Assembly: GCA_011944185.1 (NCBI GenBank) | Contig: GCA_011944185.1_3921.1 | Source of the DNA: a phage | Length of the DNA stretch: 40,116 bases | Reading direction: 5' to 3' (one strand) | Part shown: positions 32,945 through 40,116 of the stretch, one piece after another | Layout: the number at the start of each line of letters is the position of its first letter | How positions within the stretch are numbered: position 1 is the first letter of the stretch | Position numbers and translations under genes: made by a program | Notes under the pieces: model-generated | Told to the model about the DNA's origin: nothing | The model's database searches: none | Seen by the model: only the letters and a program-made list of their open reading frames with translations

Positions 32945-33328
32945 TCAAATACCTATGCAGCTTCTGTTTTCTAAGAAATACTCAACACCATACATAGCTT
33001 TTTGCATCAAATCTTCTTTAAACTGGATGCGATGATTGAGCATAGCCTGTACATCAATATCATCATGGTGCTTCTCTTTAATATTTGCAGATTGCAGGAA
33101 ATACTCTGCAAGAACGCGATATTGATAGTCAGTCACCTTATCAGTCATCTCTGTTAAAGACTCTTCAGAGATTGGTTTAAGTAGCTCGCCATTAGCTAGA
33201 GCAACACCTTTAACAATCTGACAAGTGTCTTCTGGAACACCTGATAAGTCCACATTTGGGAGTTCTGTTGCATTGACTGGTAAATTCATTGCCATAACCA
33301 TTGCAGCAGCTAATAAAATCTTTTTCAT
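32945..33328 (-). CDS. secreted/periplasmic protein with signal peptide (127 aa)
   Basis: N-terminal MKKILLAAAMVMAMNLPVNA signal-peptide-like segment; first gene after the regulatory region. Confidence 0.5.
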   Translation of the reverse strand: MKKILLAAAMVMAMNLPVNATELPNVDLSGVPEDTCQIVKGVALANGELLKPISEESLTEMTDKVTDYQYRVLAEYFLQSANIKEKHHDDIDVQAMLNHRIQFKEDLMQKAMYGVEYFLENRSCIGI

Positions 33329-33371
33329 AATGACCTCAAAGTTATATTAAATTTTGTATTACATTGAGTAT

Positions 33372-33417
33372 AAAAATAAGCTATAACACCTGACTTGTCA
33401 ACAGATTTTATAGCTTA
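33372..33417 (-). promoter_or_regulatory. promoter (-35 TTGACA, -10 TATTTT) overlapped by a 10-bp inverted-repeat operator-like site
   Basis: - strand TTGACA (+ coords 33396-33401), 17-nt spacer, TATTTT (33373-33378); arms taagctataa 33377-33386 and ttatagctta 33408-33417 flank the -35. Confidence 0.45.
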
Positions 33418-33760
33418 TCTGGCAGATTTTTTATAAGGCTACTGCCATCCTTCCATACCAGACCACACCATGCAAAACCAGACTTCACATCGCCTTGCCG
33501 TGCAATACATTACTTAAAAACCCTCTTAAAAGACTCTTAAGTGATTCTGGTGAGTACCTGTTGGTTTATGCTGCTCAGTATACTCACCAAATTTTCTATG
33601 TCAACAACTTTTATATAAAAGTCCTGATAGCTATATGTGTTACAAAACAGAAGATTGTGAACAAGACACCCATTGCAAAGGATGTGTTCAAAAGTTTACT
33701 TGTTATGTAAGACAATACAAAGACAACTAATGCAAACAGAATGATTATGCTTAACATAGC

Positions 33761-34864
33761 TTACTCATAATCCCTAATAACTAGCCCAACAGGAAACTGT
33801 AAAGAACCCTTACGAGTCATCTTCTGGAACTGTACCGTCAAAGGTTTCCCGATAAACTCTTCAGGATGCTCAGCAAGATACTGTTTCTTCTCATGAGTAG
33901 TCTTCCATGAGACATCTACAAAGATGTTAGGAAGAGTCTCTACAACGAACTTGCCATGACCACGCTTATCAGTCTTTACACCAGTCACTTTAAACTCTTC
34001 AGTGTGCATCTTCTTGTGCTTAATCAAGAAGTATGAACGGTGACAACACTCATAGAAGGAGTCTTCAGAGATTGAACGGTACATTGCACCTTCAAACTTA
34101 GCTTCAACCCACTTATCATGAGCTTCATCAAACTCTTCCCAAGAATTTACACGACGAGACTTAACAGGGACAACTTTACAGCCATCTCTAAAGTCATTCA
34201 ATGGTGAAGTCTCAATAATATCTCTACGCTCAGGCCACGTCTTAGTACTGTCACAGATATCATACCAGTAAAACTTAAGTAGATGACGGTCAGGATTGTC
34301 TTCATTTTTAATCATAGAGACAATATCTTCTAAGTCCCACCCATGAGCATAAATCTCACCATCAAATTCATCAACATCTTTGTGGAGCCTTAACATTGCC
34401 ATAATGTCAGGTATTAGCTCAGTAGGTATTTTATAAACAGTATTCTCACGAGAGTATGCTGTAAATACACTACCAATGCTTAAGTGTCTTGAAATTCTAC
34501 AACGGACACCATCAAGTTTTGGTTGAGCATCAGCAGGAAATATCAAATACTTTGCATGACTAACCTTTGCAGCATCATGAGCAAGCTGTACACCTACCTT
34601 CTCAGTATTCTGTGCAGACTCTTTCGTGTAAGCATAACCTTTACGGTCAACTTGCTTTTTATACTTAGCAGCAACTTCAAAGAGGGCTTGCTGTTCAGCA
34701 TTACGCTCATTCTTTTTACCGATGTTTTTAGGTTCTGCTGTATACTCTTCAAACATCATCTTGCCATTTTCTTTACCGTAGGTTGTAATAACTTTGTCAC
34801 CTACAGCAACGCATGACCAAACGTTGAAAGAGCCGTCTTTATTTTGTTTGTATAGAATTGTCAT
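33761..34864 (-). CDS. ATP-dependent DNA ligase
   Basis: adenylation motif I KLDG (QPKLDGVRC); 367 aa. Confidence 0.8.
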   Translation of the reverse strand: MTILYKQNKDGSFNVWSCVAVGDKVITTYGKENGKMMFEEYTAEPKNIGKKNERNAEQQALFEVAAKYKKQVDRKGYAYTKESAQNTEKVGVQLAHDAAKVSHAKYLIFPADAQPKLDGVRCRISRHLSIGSVFTAYSRENTVYKIPTELIPDIMAMLRLHKDVDEFDGEIYAHGWDLEDIVSMIKNEDNPDRHLLKFYWYDICDSTKTWPERRDIIETSPLNDFRDGCKVVPVKSRRVNSWEEFDEAHDKWVEAKFEGAMYRSISEDSFYECCHRSYFLIKHKKMHTEEFKVTGVKTDKRGHGKFVVETLPNIFVDVSWKTTHEKKQYLAEHPEEFIGKPLTVQFQKMTRKGSLQFPVGLVIRDYE

Positions 34865-34869
34865 TCAAA

Positions 34870-35394
34870 TTACCTTAGCATGTGTGATTTTACTGGAATA
34901 AAGATACCAAATTGTGAGACTGCTAAACCAGATAGTGATATACACTGTTCAGGTAAGTACACAAAAGCCCCTGTGTAGAAGTCTATAAAAGAACCATCAT
35001 CTTGTTTGCAGGCTAGTTTTCCATAACCATAGTTGTACAACTTTAATGAACCATCATCATACTTTGAGTAGTTCTTGAACTGAACATTAAAAGCATATTC
35101 AGAGAATCTTGTGTACAGGTCATAAAGCAATCCAATACTGTCGTCGACTATTGCTACACCAAACTTTTTACAAATATCCACATAGTTTTTGTATAATTTA
35201 TTATGATTTTCAGGTGTTGCAAAGTTTGTATACCAATGTTCTAAGATAGATAACTTAATTGGCTGATTTTTAGAATATTCTAATACCTTCATGTCATACC
35301 AAGATTTCCTAAGTCTGACATCATCTAGCCTTAAATTTTGAGACACTTCACGGAAGTTTTTGATGATTATATTTCTGCGCCTATTGTCAATCAT
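34870..35394 (-). CDS. hypothetical protein
   Basis: ORF 34870..35418 in the track; start placed at the internal ATG at 35394, which follows the upstream stop. Confidence 0.4.
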   Translation of the reverse strand: MIDNRRRNIIIKNFREVSQNLRLDDVRLRKSWYDMKVLEYSKNQPIKLSILEHWYTNFATPENHNKLYKNYVDICKKFGVAIVDDSIGLLYDLYTRFSEYAFNVQFKNYSKYDDGSLKLYNYGYGKLACKQDDGSFIDFYTGAFVYLPEQCISLSGLAVSQFGIFIPVKSHMLR

Positions 35395-35396
35395 AA

Positions 35397-35588
35397 TCAG
35401 CCCTCTGAGTGATACCAAGTATTACAAGCATTACATGCGTAAAGCTCTAAGTCATTTTTATCTGGTTTATGAAAACAGTTTGCTCCGCAGTGGCAACGAA
35501 ACGGCTTTCCACCAACTGTCAGGATGAAGGATTGAACCTTTCCATCTGGAGTTCGTACAGCATTTTTATGCTTATCTTCTTTGTTCAT
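35397..35588 (-). CDS. Zn-ribbon small protein (63 aa)
   Basis: CHCGANC ... CNAC cysteine pairs. Confidence 0.45.
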   Translation of the reverse strand: MNKEDKHKNAVRTPDGKVQSFILTVGGKPFRCHCGANCFHKPDKNDLELYACNACNTWYHSEG

Positions 35589-35890
35589 TTTCTCTTACCA
35601 CCAATCTCTACGTCAATAACTTGAACATCACCAGCAACATCAAACTTATGAATGATGCTTTCCACAGTGTAAGTCCAACCCTCGATTCGAACCAACTCAC
35701 CTTCTCGTGGGACGATTGGATTACGTTGAGCTACGGTTGTAGTGGAGTGAACAACATCATAACGATAGGTATAGTTTACTAGGACTTCCATCGTGAAAAC
35801 CTCACTCAATAACCGTAGTATGTGATTGTCCATTTTTGCCATAGCTGTAAGATGTTGTTGTTTGAGAGTTTGGACATCTGACAACAACAA
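35585..35890 (-). CDS. hypothetical protein (start uncertain)
   Basis: ORF overlaps the upstream lipoprotein gene unless it starts at an internal Met. Confidence 0.35.
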   Translation of the reverse strand: MLLSDVQTLKQQHLTAMAKMDNHILRLLSEVFTMEVLVNYTYRYDVVHSTTTVAQRNPIVPREGELVRIEGWTYTVESIIHKFDVAGDVQVIDVEIGGKRK

Positions 35891-36062
35891 TATCTCTGCT
35901 TATAGCGTCACCATGTAACTTGTATACTCTGCAATCTTGCATCTCTGGTGGGAGACTGTAAGAAGCATTTTTATCTTCATAAGAAGGGTTGCAGCCAGAT
36001 AGAAAAATAACACCAAGCACAATTACTGCTTTCCACATAGCACTTCTCCTATTACTGTTCAC
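35802..36062 (-). CDS. putative lipoprotein (86 aa)
   Basis: signal peptide with lipobox: MNSNRRSAMWKAVIVLGVIFLSGC (L-S-G-C). Confidence 0.55.
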   Translation of the reverse strand: MNSNRRSAMWKAVIVLGVIFLSGCNPSYEDKNASYSLPPEMQDCRVYKLHGDAISRDIVVVRCPNSQTTTSYSYGKNGQSHTTVIE

Positions 36063-36294
36063 GATGTTCTACTTCTCTGTACGTTCGCCGGTAGTTTATA
36101 ATAAGCTGTGCTAACTCGTTGCTTTTAACATCTGAACGTAGCAGTTGCCAATCAAAACCTTTACCGACTCTTCCATACAAACTGAATAATTTTACTTTGC
36201 GTTTCATTTTGGTATACCAATACTCAGAGGTCAATATTAATACGTTCGCCCTTAAGGACTCCTGTACGGTCTCTTGCAATCTTGCCGTCAACAA
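36052..36294 (-). CDS. hypothetical basic small protein
   Basis: ORF; may start at internal MKRKVK (about 36207). Confidence 0.35.
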   Translation of the reverse strand: MLTARLQETVQESLRANVLILTSEYWYTKMKRKVKLFSLYGRVGKGFDWQLLRSDVKSNELAQLIINYRRTYREVEHREQ

Positions 36295-36451
36295 TAAGGA
36301 TGTGTGCAGACTCTAAACAGTCGCCATTAAAAGCTTTTACGAACTTACTAGGCATCACTACAATGGACATCTCCTGAATCAACTCTGGAGTATAGCAATT
36401 GTCGTGAAGTTGCTGAATAACGTCTGCAAGTGTCATTTTTGATGTCTCCAA
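36224..36451 (-). CDS. hypothetical small protein (75 aa)
   Basis: ORF in a co-directional array. Confidence 0.35.
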   Translation of the reverse strand: METSKMTLADVIQQLHDNCYTPELIQEMSIVVMPSKFVKAFNGDCLESAHILIVDGKIARDRTGVLKGERINIDL

Positions 36452-36642
36452 TACTCAATATCAATAAGTTCTTGTGCAATGCTTTTCAGATTGCCTTTCA
36501 AGAAAACCTTCTCAGAACCTGAAAGAGATGAATTGTCAATTAACCTGTTCATTCTCTCAAACAACTTCTGCTTACGATTCTTGATAGTTTCCTTTGAAGC
36601 ACCTTTCATCATCGCTGCATGGGTTCTTCCACGATGGCTCAT
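36433..36642 (-). CDS. hypothetical basic small protein (69 aa)
   Basis: ORF in a co-directional array. Confidence 0.35.
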   Translation of the reverse strand: MSHRGRTHAAMMKGASKETIKNRKQKLFERMNRLIDNSSLSGSEKVFLKGNLKSIAQELIDIEYWRHQK

Positions 36643-36693
36643 AAGCCCTCCTATATAAGATATTGTATAAGGTACTCTTCCATGAGCACCTTG

Positions 36694-37209
36694 TCAACTT
36701 AGTTTTGCAAATTCTCCGTGGAGTTTAATAGCAGCTTCACAGTAAGCTTTATGGGCTTCTTCTTCTGTTGTGTATGTCCCTATATGTATAGTCTTGCCAT
36801 TATGGTTAATCTGGGCTATCCACTTACCAGACTTGCTTCTACTTGTACCTTTTAAGTTTTTTGATGTTCTAGGTTGTCTCCTATTGGACATGTTCTGCTC
36901 TTTTGTGGCCTCTCTTAGATTGTCCCAAGCGTTATTCAAACCATCTCCATCTTTGTGGTCAATGTGTTTATCAGGCCACTTACCTGTCATCCAGAACCAA
37001 GCAATTCGGTGATTGCCTGTCCTGTATCCTAAAATCTGTGTGTGCATATACACACCAGACCTTGTGCGCTTGATTGCTCCGGCTTGGCTCCCAATAACCA
37101 CCCTACTACTATGTGGAGGTCTGCCAATCCACGTTAAGACCCCTGTTTCGGGGTCATAGTTTAACCAAGACTTTAACTGTTCATGTGTGAATCCACAATC
37201 TCGCATCAA
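36694..37209 (-). CDS. HNH homing endonuclease with AP2-like DNA-binding domain
   Basis: HNH_3-like IDHKDGDGLNNAWDNLREAT; C-terminal AP2-like KSGKWIAQINHNGKTIHIGTYTTEEEAHKAY; overlaps the stop of the polymerase gene. Confidence 0.75.
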   Translation of the reverse strand: MMRDCGFTHEQLKSWLNYDPETGVLTWIGRPPHSSRVVIGSQAGAIKRTRSGVYMHTQILGYRTGNHRIAWFWMTGKWPDKHIDHKDGDGLNNAWDNLREATKEQNMSNRRQPRTSKNLKGTSRSKSGKWIAQINHNGKTIHIGTYTTEEEAHKAYCEAAIKLHGEFAKLS

Positions 37210-39905
37210 TGTACCTCATACCAGCTTTTACCAACCTTACCAGTACCTGTAACAAGCGTTTCTTTCTTAAGACCTAAGTTCTTAGAAGCTTGTCCATAAT
37301 ACCAGTCAGTAACTGCTTTCACTTCTGCCGTCATACTTTCTGGACATTCCCAACTCGTCTCGTCGTGATATGCGCAGAGTAAACGAGCACCAATAGCTGG
37401 TTTACGCCCATTTAACTTCATCAAGCCTTCGTCAATCATACGACGGCAAGCAAGGTTAATTGCCTCATTTTGAATCTGAGCCTCTGAACCCATGAGCAAA
37501 TAATTCAACAACTTATGTGGAGATTTACACCACAACCAAGCTCCAGCAACCTTTACAAAACCCCCTTTAGAGATTGCAGCGGTCTTACCAAACACCTCTT
37601 CAAGAGCCTTTTTAGTTGCTTTGTAGTCAGCTTCCAAGTTATCTAATAGTTTCTTAATCTTTGGCAAACGCACAAAGTAAGTCTGTTTAGTTAATGCACC
37701 TTCCTGAGTAGTTGCAGCTTTAATCGTCTTAGCAAACTTTTCATCACCTGCACCGAACAGTAGTGCATAGATACCATTCTTAGCTTTCTTACGACCTTTG
37801 CTAATCTCATGAAGAAGATTCTCATCCTGAGTAGCTCGACAAGTCAAGATATCCTGCTCATCATTCAAGCTAAAGTAAATACTGTTCAGTGTATGTGCAT
37901 CAGTCCCTGAATAGACAACGTACAGGTCATTCTCAGAGTCATAGCGAAGGTACTTATCAATCTCTGGGTTTAGGTACTCATCAAAATGTTTGCAGTAATA
38001 GCGTCCATCTTCTTGACGAATAAACTCAATCTCTTCTTTACCTTGCGTTACCGCTTTGGTGAAGTCTTTGTCACCCATAAAGTTACAAAGGAGAACTAGC
38101 TGGGCTGAGTTCATGTCTACAGAGACAACATTAGTACCTTCTTCACAAATCCACACTGCCCTCATTGGTTCCCCATAGACAGCAGCACCAGACGGTACGT
38201 TTACAATACCATATTGTGTCATACGTCCAGTTGAAGTACCAAATACCATTGCACCAGCACTAAGGCGACCATCTGGACGAATCTGGTTCAGCCAACCTTT
38301 CTCGTCATCCTTTGAGTTCTCAATAGTTCTGCGTCTGTGCATCAAAGTGTAGTACTTAGCAATCTTCTGTCCAAGCTCACCTTCAATCGTATCATAAGAT
38401 GATTCAGTAAGTTTTGGTGAAGTACGGATTAAGCAAGGTTCAAGCAAATCTGTGTATTTCTTCACGGACCAGTTATGCTCAATGTACTGAACACCTTCAT
38501 GTTCAACATAACTCAAACCACACCGCTCAACCATTTCCTGCCACTTAGGATGTTTTGTAATCATCTTTTTATTGTCTTTGAAACGACAAACTTTGACAGG
38601 GCGACCATCTGAGTCTTTCTTGTAGTTCCAGTCATCTGGAATCCAACCAACTGATTTCAAGTAGTCTTTAACAACTGCTACCTGAGTCATGCGAGAAACT
38701 TCGAACTCAATTGGTGTATATGGTGCATCAATCAAACCTGTGTAGCGACTTGACTCAAGTTCAAAGTGGTTAACAACGTGACTGTTATAGTACTTCACAG
38801 TTTTGACTGTTTTCACTGGCTTCCAGTCTTTGCATTTCTTACCAATCTTTGCATTCAACTCATTGCAAATTGCACGAGCATCCTTCATTGCTACAAAGCC
38901 TTCCTTGTACTCTTCACCAGTTACAGAGTTGGTTGGGGTGTAGCAATTTCTCTTTTCAATGTTAAAAATCTTTGTAGTTGGCTTACCAAATGGCTTGATT
39001 TCGTATGTCTGCATCTCACCGTTACGTACCTGCTGACGGTACTTTGTCTTAGGGTACTTGGTAATTCTCTTCAGTCCATCTGCATGACCGAATGCTTCAA
39101 CATACTCATTCCAAGCTTTTGCAAACTCTTCTCCAGTGACTTTACCTTTGGTCTTAATAGTTGGAGGAAGATGTGGTTCAACTTCTGAAGCAAGCTCATT
39201 AGTCAACTTGTCAAGTTCCTTTACATGAAACTCCATAAGCTCCTTATCAGCTTTCCAACCATTGATAGCTTGTTGACTCATCCAGAAAGATGTTTCTTTA
39301 GCTCGCATATAGGTTTCATAAGTATCTATGCCACACTTCTTAAGCTTGAGATACTCATTATCAAGTGCCCGTTTAGTTTTGGCGTTAATACGGATATCTT
39401 CTACAACACGAGTGAAGATTTCTGCATTCCACACACCCCAATGTTCAATCTCTGGTTTACGAACACCAACACGAGCACCCCATGCAGCCAAGCCATGAGC
39501 ACCTTTATAGCCTTTTGGAGTTGGCCTATCCATCCACTGAACACGAGACTGAATAAGAGAATCCTGAAAGAAATTACTCCACGGCTTACATTTTGGATTA
39601 TCAAAGTTCCATAAATCCGGTGCAATGTGATTGAAAACCCACCAGTCATAACCGAGGCCATTATGGATACAAAGTCGTTTTGCCTTTAACGCAAACTCAA
39701 CACCTTCACGTAAACCACCCTTAATGTACTTAGTGTACTTGTGACCGAGGATAGGCTCATCTGTAAAGACCCATACAGGTGGCTCTTCATCGTCAGATTT
39801 ATAGTCTGCAAAAGCCATTACGTGAACTTTAGTGAACTCAAGGAGTAAACCATCAGTTTCTGTATCACCAACTAAATGTAAGTTTTTAAAATCTACGTTT
39901 TCCAT
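37206..39905 (-). CDS. DNA polymerase, family A, with 3'-5' exonuclease domain
   Basis: Exo I DTETDG; motif A-like VVSVDMNSAQL; motif B-like KNGIYALLFGAG; motif C YHDE; ATG at 39905 with GAGGGAG RBS (the track starts 30 nt further upstream at 39935). Confidence 0.88.
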   Translation of the reverse strand: MENVDFKNLHLVGDTETDGLLLEFTKVHVMAFADYKSDDEEPPVWVFTDEPILGHKYTKYIKGGLREGVEFALKAKRLCIHNGLGYDWWVFNHIAPDLWNFDNPKCKPWSNFFQDSLIQSRVQWMDRPTPKGYKGAHGLAAWGARVGVRKPEIEHWGVWNAEIFTRVVEDIRINAKTKRALDNEYLKLKKCGIDTYETYMRAKETSFWMSQQAINGWKADKELMEFHVKELDKLTNELASEVEPHLPPTIKTKGKVTGEEFAKAWNEYVEAFGHADGLKRITKYPKTKYRQQVRNGEMQTYEIKPFGKPTTKIFNIEKRNCYTPTNSVTGEEYKEGFVAMKDARAICNELNAKIGKKCKDWKPVKTVKTVKYYNSHVVNHFELESSRYTGLIDAPYTPIEFEVSRMTQVAVVKDYLKSVGWIPDDWNYKKDSDGRPVKVCRFKDNKKMITKHPKWQEMVERCGLSYVEHEGVQYIEHNWSVKKYTDLLEPCLIRTSPKLTESSYDTIEGELGQKIAKYYTLMHRRRTIENSKDDEKGWLNQIRPDGRLSAGAMVFGTSTGRMTQYGIVNVPSGAAVYGEPMRAVWICEEGTNVVSVDMNSAQLVLLCNFMGDKDFTKAVTQGKEEIEFIRQEDGRYYCKHFDEYLNPEIDKYLRYDSENDLYVVYSGTDAHTLNSIYFSLNDEQDILTCRATQDENLLHEISKGRKKAKNGIYALLFGAGDEKFAKTIKAATTQEGALTKQTYFVRLPKIKKLLDNLEADYKATKKALEEVFGKTAAISKGGFVKVAGAWLWCKSPHKLLNYLLMGSEAQIQNEAINLACRRMIDEGLMKLNGRKPAIGARLLCAYHDETSWECPESMTAEVKAVTDWYYGQASKNLGLKKETLVTGTGKVGKSWYEVH

Positions 39906-39950
39906 TTTTACTCCCTCTAAAATCATTAACCTCATACATTACTGCAAAAA

Positions 39951-39984
39951 ATTATAAAAAGCAAGTTGACAATGTACTTGACAA
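39951..39984 (-). promoter_or_regulatory. candidate promoter for the polymerase operon (perfect -10 TATAAT on - strand)
   Basis: + strand attata at 39951-39956 is TATAAT on -, about 45 nt upstream of the start; two TTGTCA/TTGACA hexamers nearby but none at ideal spacing. Confidence 0.3.
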
Positions 39985-40116
39985 GGTGTTAATCTTTGCG
40001 AAGTGGGTTTTTACTTAAAAGGTTACTTAACAGTTTAACTATACAGATACTTTAAAACTCTTAAAAGATTGTTTAATAGCTTTTAAAAAGCTTTAAAGTA
40101 TAACGTATAGAATACG

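Follow-up and report, generated by a model that had tools for sequence, protein, structure and literature searches.

Homing endonuclease genes beside phage DNA polymerase genes

Several phage systems provide precedents for a homing endonuclease gene that resides next to an essential gene. In phage T4, mobE lies between nrdA and nrdB and encodes a free-standing HNH endonuclease that is sporadically distributed and adjoins an essential gene of DNA metabolism (PMC2790892). The gene is promoterless, is co-transcribed with the gene upstream, nicks its neighboring gene, and is inherited at high frequency, and it has an internal terminator, a hairpin located 27 nt past its AUG (PMC2790892). The T4 endonucleases SegF and SegG, which are of the GIY-YIG type, are also free-standing between conserved genes, and spread by cleaving the naive allele and co-converting its flanks (PMC2988022).

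The Bacillus phages SPO1 and SP82 offer a second precedent. [quoted passage not shown] In these systems, one polymerase site is held by alternative endonucleases in related phages, which compete with each other.

A third group comprises the HNH-AP2 homing endonucleases of Magnani et al. (2004), which, as relayed in a later study (PMC10448857), combine an N-terminal HNH domain with a C-terminal AP2 domain. Among HNH-AP2 homing endonuclease genes, 29% are located near DNA polymerase genes, and different genes of this kind substitute for each other at a given site (PMC10448857). The “IPA-HNH” genes of ICP1-like phages (Barth et al. 2023) encode proteins too divergent for Pfam HNH_3. In the literature searched, no mapped cleavage site was found for polymerase-adjacent members of either the Magnani HNH-AP2 or the IPA-HNH group. 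Another close case is phage Felix O1, whose genome contains six HNH genes (PMC3185647), one of which, gp94, is compared with our gene below.

Here we describe an HNH-AP2 gene behind the DNA polymerase gene in a 40,116-nt stretch of phage DNA, hereafter called the window. As a finding this is already known in kind and adds little by itself: GenBank relatives already label the gene “HNH homing endonuclease,” and an earlier study already links HNH-AP2 nucleases to polymerase genes (PMC10448857). What the comparison of relatives yields is an unusually clean natural record of homing, with a 518-nt unit, boundaries defined at the level of single bases, and an allelic series of rival nucleases. The inferred target is the final, conserved codons of an essential polymerase gene, and transfer spans at least three phage groups whose hosts are Escherichia/Salmonella, probably Citrobacter, and Hafnia. 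Felixounaviruses, the group to which the window belongs, serve in phage therapy and biocontrol cocktails, and the stability of such cocktails could therefore be influenced by a nuclease that acts on co-infecting relatives, converting or damaging their polymerase locus. E. coli K-12 is a host for many isolates of either kind, with the gene or lacking it, which also makes the system amenable to experiment.

The junction of the polymerase and HNH genes

Three features define the locus:

37206..39905, minus strand: family A DNA polymerase gene (open reading frame; Pfam DNA_pol_A, E=1.8e-15)
36694..37206, minus strand: probable free-standing homing endonuclease gene with HNH_3 and AP2 domains, 170 aa from ATG (open reading frame; Pfam)
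37213..37217, minus strand: GAGGT Shine-Dalgarno sequence of the HNH gene, within the last polymerase codons and 6 nt 5' of the ATG (read from the sequence)

The window is from a Felixounavirus (a Felix O1-like phage), and its polymerase gene shares 92-97% nucleotide identity with annotated Felixounavirus DNA polymerases. Read from the first ATG, the polymerase open reading frame covers 37206..39935, and other in-frame ATGs occur at 39926 and 39935. The ATG at 39905 is the most plausible start because a Shine-Dalgarno sequence, GAGGGAG, precedes it. The polymerase gene is uninterrupted and lacks an intron.

A preliminary description of this DNA had placed an HNH-AP2 gene behind the polymerase gene, and both minus-strand open reading frames are present with Pfam matches to the respective domains. 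The same description had the HNH gene start inside the last polymerase codons with an overlap of 4 nt. At the junction (...GAGGTACATTGATGCGA), a TTG at 37209 extends the HNH open reading frame by one codon (36694..37209) and does produce the 4-nt overlap (TTGA). The next codon, however, is the ATG at 37206, which overlaps the polymerase TGA stop by 1 nt and is the likelier start; the GenBank annotation of phage ASO1A uses this ATG (polymerase 475-3195, HNH 3195-3707). The two genes had further been called “fused in operon,” which is apt for overlapping genes in one transcription unit and wrong for a protein fusion, since the reading frames differ.

Promoter and terminator scans of 36000-40116 and 33000-36000 gave no consensus site between the polymerase and HNH genes, and they flagged neither the hairpin nor the conserved TTGACA element that are described below. 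In ASO1A, the annotated promoter lies upstream of the polymerase gene and the annotated terminator follows the ligase gene. The HNH gene would thus have no promoter of its own, and would be expressed through co-transcription with the polymerase gene and translational coupling. Coupling is suggested by the overlap of the HNH ATG with the polymerase TGA and by the position of the Shine-Dalgarno sequence inside the polymerase gene.

The HNH open reading frame is intergenic and stands alone; it begins at the polymerase stop but in a different frame. The insertion lies precisely between this stop and a conserved element ahead of the next gene. An Rfam search of 36000..40116 returned no match at E<=1, and a location within an intron or intein is ruled out by this result together with the stand-alone reading frame. 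In this respect the locus differs from those of I-HmuI and I-HmuII, since the window gene follows the polymerase stop and involves no intron. No second copy was detected in the window by tblastn with the HNH protein or by blastn with the 3' tail of its gene. A neighboring gene of 69 aa is present in some relatives and absent in others.

The HNH-AP2 protein

The HNH_3 match (E=1.3e-14; 53.9 bits against a cut-off of 24.8) covers residues 67-107, and the strength of this match separates the window protein from the IPA-HNH group. The AP2 match (E=1.9e-9; 38.1 bits against a cut-off of 33.3) covers residues 123-165, with the domain placed at about 122-164, C-terminal to the HNH domain as in the HNH-AP2 homing endonucleases. 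T4 MobE, in contrast, has another C-terminal DNA-binding region and lacks AP2. When the protein was searched against the PDB with phmmer, it matched the plant AP2/ERF structures WRI1 (2.9e-8), ERF096, TEM1, and ATERF1. Its sequence similarity to I-HmuI is weak (E=0.05; 0.05-0.06 for the PDB entry 1U3E).

The active sites of the two proteins can be aligned over the D-H...N...N motif. With IDHKDGDGLNNAWDNLREATKEQN of the HNH protein set against VDHKDGNKDNNLSTNLRWVTQKIN of I-HmuI, residues D83/H84/N96/N105 correspond to D74/H75/N87/N96. In I-HmuI these residues have catalytic or metal-binding roles, namely those of a general-base His after an Asp, plus two Asn. D83, H84, N96, and N105 are therefore the putative catalytic residues of the HNH protein. 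The Pfam matches and the active-site alignment together settle the family assignment. A single-sequence AlphaFold2 model had a mean pLDDT of 50.4 and was confident in the AP2 part only (74-85), which is too poor to confirm the beta-beta-alpha-metal fold.

The gene is intact in 22 of 22 occupied loci, and dN/dS values of 0.02-0.06 within the lineage of the window (0.02-0.15 within lineages overall) indicate that it is under purifying selection. On the sequence comparisons taken together, the gene is probably a free-standing homing endonuclease gene of an established type, HNH_3/I-HmuI-like with a C-terminal AP2 domain, for which we infer homing itself. Nicking and homing have been demonstrated for MobE, in contrast, and the literature searched contained no cleavage or homing experiment on any Felixounavirus HNH protein.

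A multi-allelic slot behind the polymerase gene

The HNH protein was found by tblastn at >=80% identity in ~47 phage records, and the polymerase region is present in 261-264 related GenBank records. Comparison of polymerase loci among relatives had been proposed at the outset as a check on its spread by homing, with universal and syntenic presence as the refuting outcome; the HNH gene is not so distributed (~47 of ~260 Ounavirinae records).

We compared this slot in 42 loci, 39 of which are anchored by the conserved downstream element. The slot is empty in 17 loci, holds the HNH lineage of the window in six, and holds other HNH-AP2 lineages in 16. The remaining three are distant loci without the anchor: L033 has the HNH lineage of the window, and L031 and L032 have no HNH gene behind the polymerase gene. 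Four other lineages occupy the slot, 40-57% identical to that of the window. The slot is thus multi-allelic, with at least five HNH-AP2 lineages, rather than a site of plain presence or absence.

In empty sites, 12-13 nt separate the polymerase stop from the conserved downstream element. These empty sites are the same in different genera, an argument for the empty site as the ancestral condition. In L011, L014, and L026, whose polymerase genes are closest to that of the window, the site is empty, and isogenic pairs of occupied and empty loci are formed by the window with L011/L026, L036 with L037, L016 with L010, and L033 with Hafnia phage Zyzzx. Phages H12, fjerdesal, and wV8 are further examples with an empty allele, and phage heid is a carrier. 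The right flank has no association with the HNH lineage. On the upstream side, an intron site lies 557 nt from the slot.

One occupant from another lineage (lineage B) is gp94 of Felix O1/FO1a. It shares with the window gene the same slot, the same architecture, a 5' hairpin, and a 22-aa C-terminal tail. The two proteins are only 40% identical, however, and gp94 overlaps the polymerase gene by 19 nt and comes with a strongly diverged polymerase 3' end (56-59% nucleotide identity to the window).

This last difference bears on an alternative function. The nuclease could be mainly a weapon against co-infecting phages, acting through marker exclusion or interference by hitting the polymerase locus of rivals that have an empty site or another allele. 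The carrier genome as a whole would gain, and lineages in the slot would exclude one another. Such a role would accord with the presence of at least five HNH-AP2 lineages, all intact, at one site beside an essential gene. In carriers of other lineages, moreover, the 250-300 nt of the polymerase gene nearest to the endonuclease gene are its most diverged part, at 56-59% identity to the window, against 95-100% further upstream in FO1a-type loci. Precedents also exist: phage PhiPA3 uses an intron endonuclease in interference competition (PMC11620839), and marker exclusion by endonucleases is known from T4 (PMC2988022). Interference is nonetheless compatible with homing, and would be an added benefit rather than another mechanism. 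The polymerase 3' end of the window is of the empty-site type up to -16, so that the window lineage has no broad protective divergence. We therefore consider it unlikely that the gene is chiefly a weapon, and favor homing.

A sharply bounded mobile unit

One line of evidence for movement of the gene comes from L033, a genome resembling that of a Hafnia phage. This comparison delimits one further feature:

36706..37223, minus strand: 518-nt mobile unit, delimited by comparison with L033

The unit comprises the last five polymerase codons plus stop (TGGTATGAGGTACATTGA) and the HNH open reading frame minus its last three codons. Within it, the window and L033 share 92-98% nucleotide identity. Outside it, L033 is 48-78% identical to the window on the polymerase side and ~35% identical, and unalignable, on the other. 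Zyzzx, the nearest GenBank relative of L033 (89% nucleotide identity), has an empty site. Sequence comparison thus reveals transfer of a 518-nt unit with sharp ends between phages whose flanks are strongly diverged. L016 (IMG/VR UViG 2974556886, 90,000 bp) carries an HNH copy that is 89% identical at the protein level, and Citrobacter phage Michonne also has an HNH gene behind its polymerase gene.

Placement beside an essential replication gene had initially been read as the classic arrangement of a homing endonuclease that spreads into related phages. Sporadic presence lends support to that reading, as does the much higher conservation of the element than of its flanks when a divergent genome is compared. 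Measured from the polymerase end, the left junction lies between -14 and -24 in four of four background comparisons. The lineage of the window (lineage A) adjoins at least five polymerase 3' haplotypes, each of which is also found with an empty site or another HNH lineage. Ordinary recombination in these very mosaic genomes could yield part of this shuffling of haplotypes.

A second alternative treats the gene as passive cargo. It would be an ancestral or shuffled accessory gene that is repeatedly lost and is moved by homologous recombination, and its nuclease would be inactive or would have some other role, for instance in processing DNA or degrading that of the host. Felixounavirus genomes are indeed highly mosaic on both sides of the slot, and the variable presence of the 69-aa gene next to it offers a parallel. 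Repeated loss of an ancestral gene nevertheless fails as an explanation, because L033 carries a near-identical unit between diverged flanks while its nearest relative is empty. The identity of empty sites across genera, the recurrence of the sharp left junction in four backgrounds, and the intact catalytic residues also speak against passive carriage, which we regard as very improbable.

In the homing process that we favor, the enzyme would nick or cut the empty allele during mixed infection, at or near the conserved last polymerase codons. Repair of the break from the carrier genome would then copy the gene together with ~15-24 nt of polymerase sequence. Carrier and empty alleles differ at 5-6 of the last 15 polymerase bases. 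By dividing the site and altering these bases, the insertion would make the carrier allele immune. This candidate target is placed by the junction positions only, and free-standing T4 endonucleases often cut hundreds of base pairs from their own gene (PMC2988022). SegF and SegG, for example, cleave far off and generate long co-conversion tracts, whereas the flank transferred here would be only ~15-24 nt. The L033 transfer has no detectable homology on the right side, and needed illegitimate joining rather than textbook double-strand-break repair.

Conserved nucleotide elements in the slot

Three short elements are conserved among occupied or empty loci:

37138..37155, minus strand: GACCCC-gaaaca-GGGGTC hairpin (inverted repeat), 52 nt into the HNH open reading frame, codons D-P-E-T-G-V
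36694..36762, minus strand: 3' tail of the HNH open reading frame (EEAHKAYCEAAIKLHGEFAKLS), nucleotide-identical across 40-57% identical lineages in the slot
36665..36697, minus strand: conserved intergenic element TTGACAAGGTGCTCATGGAAGAGTACCTTATAC, the right-hand border of the insertion site

The stem sequences of the hairpin do not vary among the HNH-bearing loci (22 of 22, five lineages), and its loops come in five versions; GACCCC-N6-GGGGTC sits 40-52 nt into the open reading frame across lineages. The window has a single copy, where chance would give 0.01, and the predicted dG is -12.6 kcal/mol. An origin as a by-product of the protein motif is ruled out, as codon choice is even across 121 YDPETGV-coding sites of other phages, of which only five form the hairpin. 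An RNA fold of the 181-nt junction region was no more stable than shuffled sequence (z=0.15).

A stem-loop soon after the start codon recalls T4 mobE (27 nt there, 52 nt here). The mobE hairpin, however, is a proven terminator with a 9-bp stem and a U-tract, whereas the window hairpin has a 6-bp stem followed by UU/UUU and is a putative one. It would make a poor intrinsic terminator, since only 2-3 U follow and the terminator scan did not report it. By analogy with mobE, the hairpin may attenuate HNH expression, which is the weakest step in the process we propose. That the protein is instead an AP2-type regulator with a vestigial HNH domain, for instance a repressor at the G4/C4 inverted repeat of its own gene or elsewhere, is scarcely credible: phage AP2 domains can be sequence-specific transcriptional silencers (CasPRs; bioRxiv 10.64898/2026.02.23.707548) and prefer G/C-rich motifs (PMC10448857), and the genome around the invariant GACCCC/GGGGTC repeat has a G+C content of ~39%, but the HNH motif residues are all conserved under purifying selection, CasPRs have no nuclease domain (bioRxiv 10.64898/2026.02.23.707548), and sporadic distribution with lateral transfer suits a selfish nuclease better.

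One tentative possibility, which we would not yet favor, is that the slot is a modular docking site for at least five HNH-AP2 lineages that displace each other while all keep the hairpin and the 69-nt tail. The hairpin would limit nuclease dosage, and the tail would be a common right-hand arm of recombination for swapping alleles. The hairpin could then be a mobE-like attenuator or terminator, or an operator for a G/C-preferring AP2 domain. If true, competing selfish nucleases would have in common a conserved scaffold for regulation and recombination.

The tail and the border element have the following properties. Identity between lineages at third codon positions is 84-96% in the tail and 24-62% (mostly <50%) in the rest of the gene, the hairpin excepted. 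FO1a DNA matches the window only from the start of the 3' tail onward, and the tail differs in a paralog family located elsewhere in the genome. The conserved intergenic element is unique in the window. In 39 of 42 loci it follows immediately on the polymerase stop, where the site is empty, or on the HNH gene. The HNH stop codon TGA falls within its TTGACA.

A free-standing homing endonuclease gene behind the polymerase gene

The preliminary description placed a homing endonuclease gene with HNH and AP2 domains directly behind the DNA polymerase gene, and this arrangement was borne out by the open reading frames (ORFs) and by matches to three Pfam families. The HNH ORF matches HNH_3 (E=1.3e-14, 53.9 bits; cut-off 24.8) and AP2 (E=1.9e-9, 38.1 bits; cut-off 33.3), a combination that represents a described class of homing endonucleases.

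Features of the polymerase–HNH region
37206..39935, minus strand: family A DNA polymerase ORF (Pfam DNA_pol_A, E=1.8e-15)
36694..37209, minus strand: HNH ORF, directly after the polymerase gene
37138-37155: GACCCC-gaaaca-GGGGTC hairpin (inverted repeat) inside the HNH ORF
36694-36762: 3' tail of the HNH ORF, its last 69 nt
36665-36697: conserved 33-nt element TTGACAAGGTGCTCATGGAAGAGTACCTTATAC, directly after the polymerase or HNH gene

The two genes meet at GAGGTACATTGATGCGA. The 4-nt overlap claimed earlier holds if the HNH ORF starts at the TTG at 37209. The next codon, ATG 37206, shares one base with the polymerase TGA, has a GAGGT Shine–Dalgarno (SD) sequence 6 nt before it, and is the type of start chosen by GenBank annotators in relatives, which makes a 1-nt overlap a small correction. 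Of the three in-frame ATGs that could start the polymerase gene (39935, 39926, 39905), only the last, the one originally chosen, has an SD sequence (GAGGGAG) ahead.

When the HNH protein was compared with solved structures, its C-terminal part matched plant AP2/ERF domains (best E=2.9e-8) and its central part matched the HNH homing endonuclease I-HmuI (E about 0.05), a member of the same catalytic subfamily whose gene is located in an intron of the family A polymerase gene of SPO1. Residues D83, H84, N96, and N105 align with I-HmuI D74, H75, N87, and N96, which are reportedly the catalytic and metal-binding residues in the I-HmuI structure. A single-sequence AlphaFold model (mean pLDDT 50.4) is confident for the AP2 part only.

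An intein is ruled out because the HNH and polymerase genes lie in different frames, and an intron-borne gene because no Rfam family matches within 36000..40116. The HNH ORF is an ordinary, free-standing homing endonuclease gene of a known kind, already annotated so in GenBank: across the region, identity to many Felixounavirus genomes (Felix O1-like myoviruses; Escherichia, Salmonella, Shigella) is 92-97%, and their records label the ORF 'HNH (homing) endonuclease'. Six HNH genes are listed in the Felix O1 genome paper, which does not analyze them (PMC3185647), and a comparative Felixounavirus paper only gives their number (PMC8300805). What rises slightly above the ordinary is a clean natural record of transfer, a multi-allelic slot, and a conserved hairpin.

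Occupied, replaced, and empty slots

To describe the slot, we measured the DNA from the polymerase stop codon to the conserved downstream element GGTGCTCATGGAAGAGTACC in the window and in 41 related loci (handles beginning with L) from GenBank and IMG/VR. The window's HNH gene is termed lineage A; four other HNH-AP2 lineages, B-E, occupy the same slot, and their identity to A and to each other is only 40-57%.

State of the slot in the 42 loci compared
Empty (12-13 nt): 17 loci
Lineage A (515 nt): 6 loci, window counted
Other HNH-AP2 genes, lineages B-E (488-541 nt): 16 loci
Distant loci without the anchor element: 3 loci

Of the three loci without the anchor, one (L033) has a lineage-A gene; in the other two (L031 and L032), no HNH gene follows the polymerase gene. 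By tblastn, the window's HNH protein occurs at 80% identity or more in about 47 phage records, and the polymerase region is present in 261-264. A sample of 60 evenly spaced records from 261 in GenBank, with states read from match spans, gave approximate shares of 20% lineage A, 40% other HNH genes, and 35% empty. Lineage A is therefore in the minority and the gene is not universal, so that the homing interpretation proposed earlier survives this comparison of polymerase loci. In a set of ICP1-like HNH-AP2 genes, 29% lie beside polymerase genes, and same-site replacement of one homing endonuclease gene by another has been reported (PMC10448857).

Lateral transfer with sharp boundaries

Lineage A adjoins no fewer than five different polymerase 3' haplotypes, and each of these is also seen with an empty slot or another HNH lineage. 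The window's haplotype recurs with an empty slot in L011, L026, and L001, that of L036 in L037, and that of L016 in L010 (Citrobacter phage Mordin, Mooglevirus); L021 is paired with lineage-C carriers, and L034 with one lineage-E carrier. Over about 1 kb of the polymerase gene, the window is 99-100% identical to L014, its closest polymerase relative, yet the L014 slot is empty. All lineage-A alleles have the same last 18 nt of the polymerase gene, TGGTATGAGGTACATTGA, where empty alleles have TGGCTTGAGGTTCACTAA or close variants.

The metagenomic Ounavirinae genome L033 carries a lineage-A gene behind a polymerase whose C-terminus has only 72% protein identity to that of the window. The two share a 518-nt unit (window 36706..37223) at 92-98% nucleotide identity, bounded by position -18, counted back from the polymerase gene end, and a point 9 nt ahead of the HNH stop; flanking identity is 48-78% on the polymerase side and about 35% on the other. 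The unit swapped the local polymerase ending ESWLAVH for the Felixounavirus-type KSWYEVH, and the L033 HNH ORF ends in local sequence (ASFE in place of AKLS). In Hafnia phage Zyzzx, the nearest GenBank relative of L033 (89% nucleotide identity), the slot is empty and a terminator-like hairpin directly follows the polymerase gene. In each of the four background comparisons, the left junction lay between -14 and -24.

The observed haplotypes, the L033/Zyzzx relationship, and the junction pattern cannot have arisen from an ancestral gene that was lost again and again. Judged from these alignments, lineage A has been transferred laterally across genera, with sharp boundaries.

The empty-site allele L026 (L026:3886-3930; IMG/VR UViG 2706796270) has a hybrid polymerase end, TGGTATGAGGTACACTAA, that joins the lineage-A signature (TAT, GTA) to an empty-type ending (CAC TAA). 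Such a hybrid may have been left by loss of the endonuclease gene or by partial conversion, or it may be the ancestral home haplotype.

Selection on the protein and a proposed mechanism

All 22 HNH copies in the slot are intact, and dN/dS within lineages is 0.02-0.15 (Nei-Gojobori; 0.06 at a dS of about 1.0 for the window and L016 genes), which indicates selection on the protein. Such selection fits a population in which empty targets stay common, or a benefit to the carrier.

Lineages D and E (L008, L009, L019, L020, L023, L027, and L040) have Ser at the position of N105 (I-HmuI N96) and retain an Asn three residues further on; the rest of each protein is intact and subject to purifying selection. 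The replacement could mean that metal binding is altered or that the motif has shifted.

The comparisons establish the architecture, an active site that is intact, a sporadic distribution, and lateral transfer with sharp boundaries; beyond this, a mechanism can be proposed. Because no promoter or terminator consensus was found between the polymerase and HNH genes, and because the ASO1A annotation places a promoter upstream of the polymerase gene and a terminator after the ligase gene, the HNH gene is probably expressed from the polymerase transcript. The TGATG overlap makes translational coupling plausible. Homing endonucleases typically target conserved sequence; since the polymerase gene ends in codons (G-K-x-W-x-x-V-H-stop) that are conserved in 42 of 42 loci and the transferred polymerase flank is very short in every case, cleavage would be expected close to the insertion point, with the caveat that for free-standing T4 enzymes the cut is often at a distance from the gene (PMC2988022). 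Insertion would split the site, and the carrier allele differs from the empty one at 5-6 of the last 15 polymerase bases, which together would explain self-immunity of the carrier.

The closest functional analog is T4 MobE, encoded by a free-standing HNH gene beside nrdB. The mobE gene is promoterless and co-transcribed with the upstream gene, its product nicks the target, and it is inherited at high frequency (PMC2790892).

The 3' tail and downstream region

The 3' tail is nearly identical in nucleotide sequence in all five lineages (third-position identity 84-96%), whose proteins are otherwise 40-57% identical, and is absent from paralogs elsewhere in the genome. On this evidence it behaves as part of the right-hand flank of the slot, and it is probably a recombination arm for lineage-by-lineage replacement. 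The 33-nt element beyond it is conserved in 39 of the 42 loci and unique in the window, and the HNH stop codon falls within its TTGACA. The element opens with a perfect -35 hexamer but lacks a consensus -10 at a spacing of 16-18 nt, and may act as a phage promoter or regulatory site. A 69-aa ORF directly downstream (36433-36642, minus strand) occurs in some relatives but is missing in phage wV8, L014, L034, L035, L037, and other relatives, independent of HNH state.

A conserved hairpin inside the HNH gene

GACCCC-N6-GGGGTC lies in the D-P-x-x-G-V codons of all 22 slot copies across the five lineages, with invariant stems and five different loops. Elsewhere in the gene, third-position identity between lineages is 24-62%, mostly below 50%. 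The protein motif does not dictate the hairpin, which forms at only 5 of 121 YDPETGV-coding sites of unrelated phages. In IMG/VR the full pattern is limited to 51 occurrences, of which about 34 are in intact HNH genes, most of these on Ounavirinae-sized contigs of about 39-41% G+C. It is also found in a second HNH paralog family at another genome site.

As RNA, the hairpin has a predicted stability of -12.6 kcal/mol. It is like the internal terminator hairpin of T4 mobE, 27 nt after the AUG (PMC2790892), but its U-tract is weak; by this analogy it could be an attenuator. It could instead be a binding site for the G/C-preferring AP2 domain. Because the stems lack covariation, RNA and DNA roles are indistinguishable.

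Phage wV8 (L178:3491-3513; IMG/VR UViG 645044533), whose polymerase slot is empty, has at another genome site a 53-aa truncated remnant of the second paralog family that retains the hairpin and looks like a decaying endonuclease gene.

A polymerase intron site and database labels

The window's polymerase gene has no intron. In many relatives (L006:1149-1453, L040:3284-3567, and L035-L038) the gene is split at codon 724 (37763-37764, minus strand), within motif B (RKKAKNGIYA/LLFGAG, the slash marking the split), by inserts of about 270-313 nt or about 803 nt. The shorter ones score 62 bits against an Rfam group I intron (Mushroom and L040); for the longer one, an 'endonuclease VII' ORF is annotated in GenBank records that share the split. 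An earlier paper reported a 383-bp gap in phage Mushroom and did not explain it (PMC4392139). The 557 nt from codon 724 to the HNH slot form the most mosaic stretch of the polymerase gene.

Two GenBank records, OK283618.1 ('Listeria phage LPML1') and MG065664.1 ('Campylobacter phage A132'), are 88-92% identical to Ounavirinae polymerase/HNH DNA. Mislabeling or contamination is probable, because such host labels are unlikely for an enterobacterial phage group.
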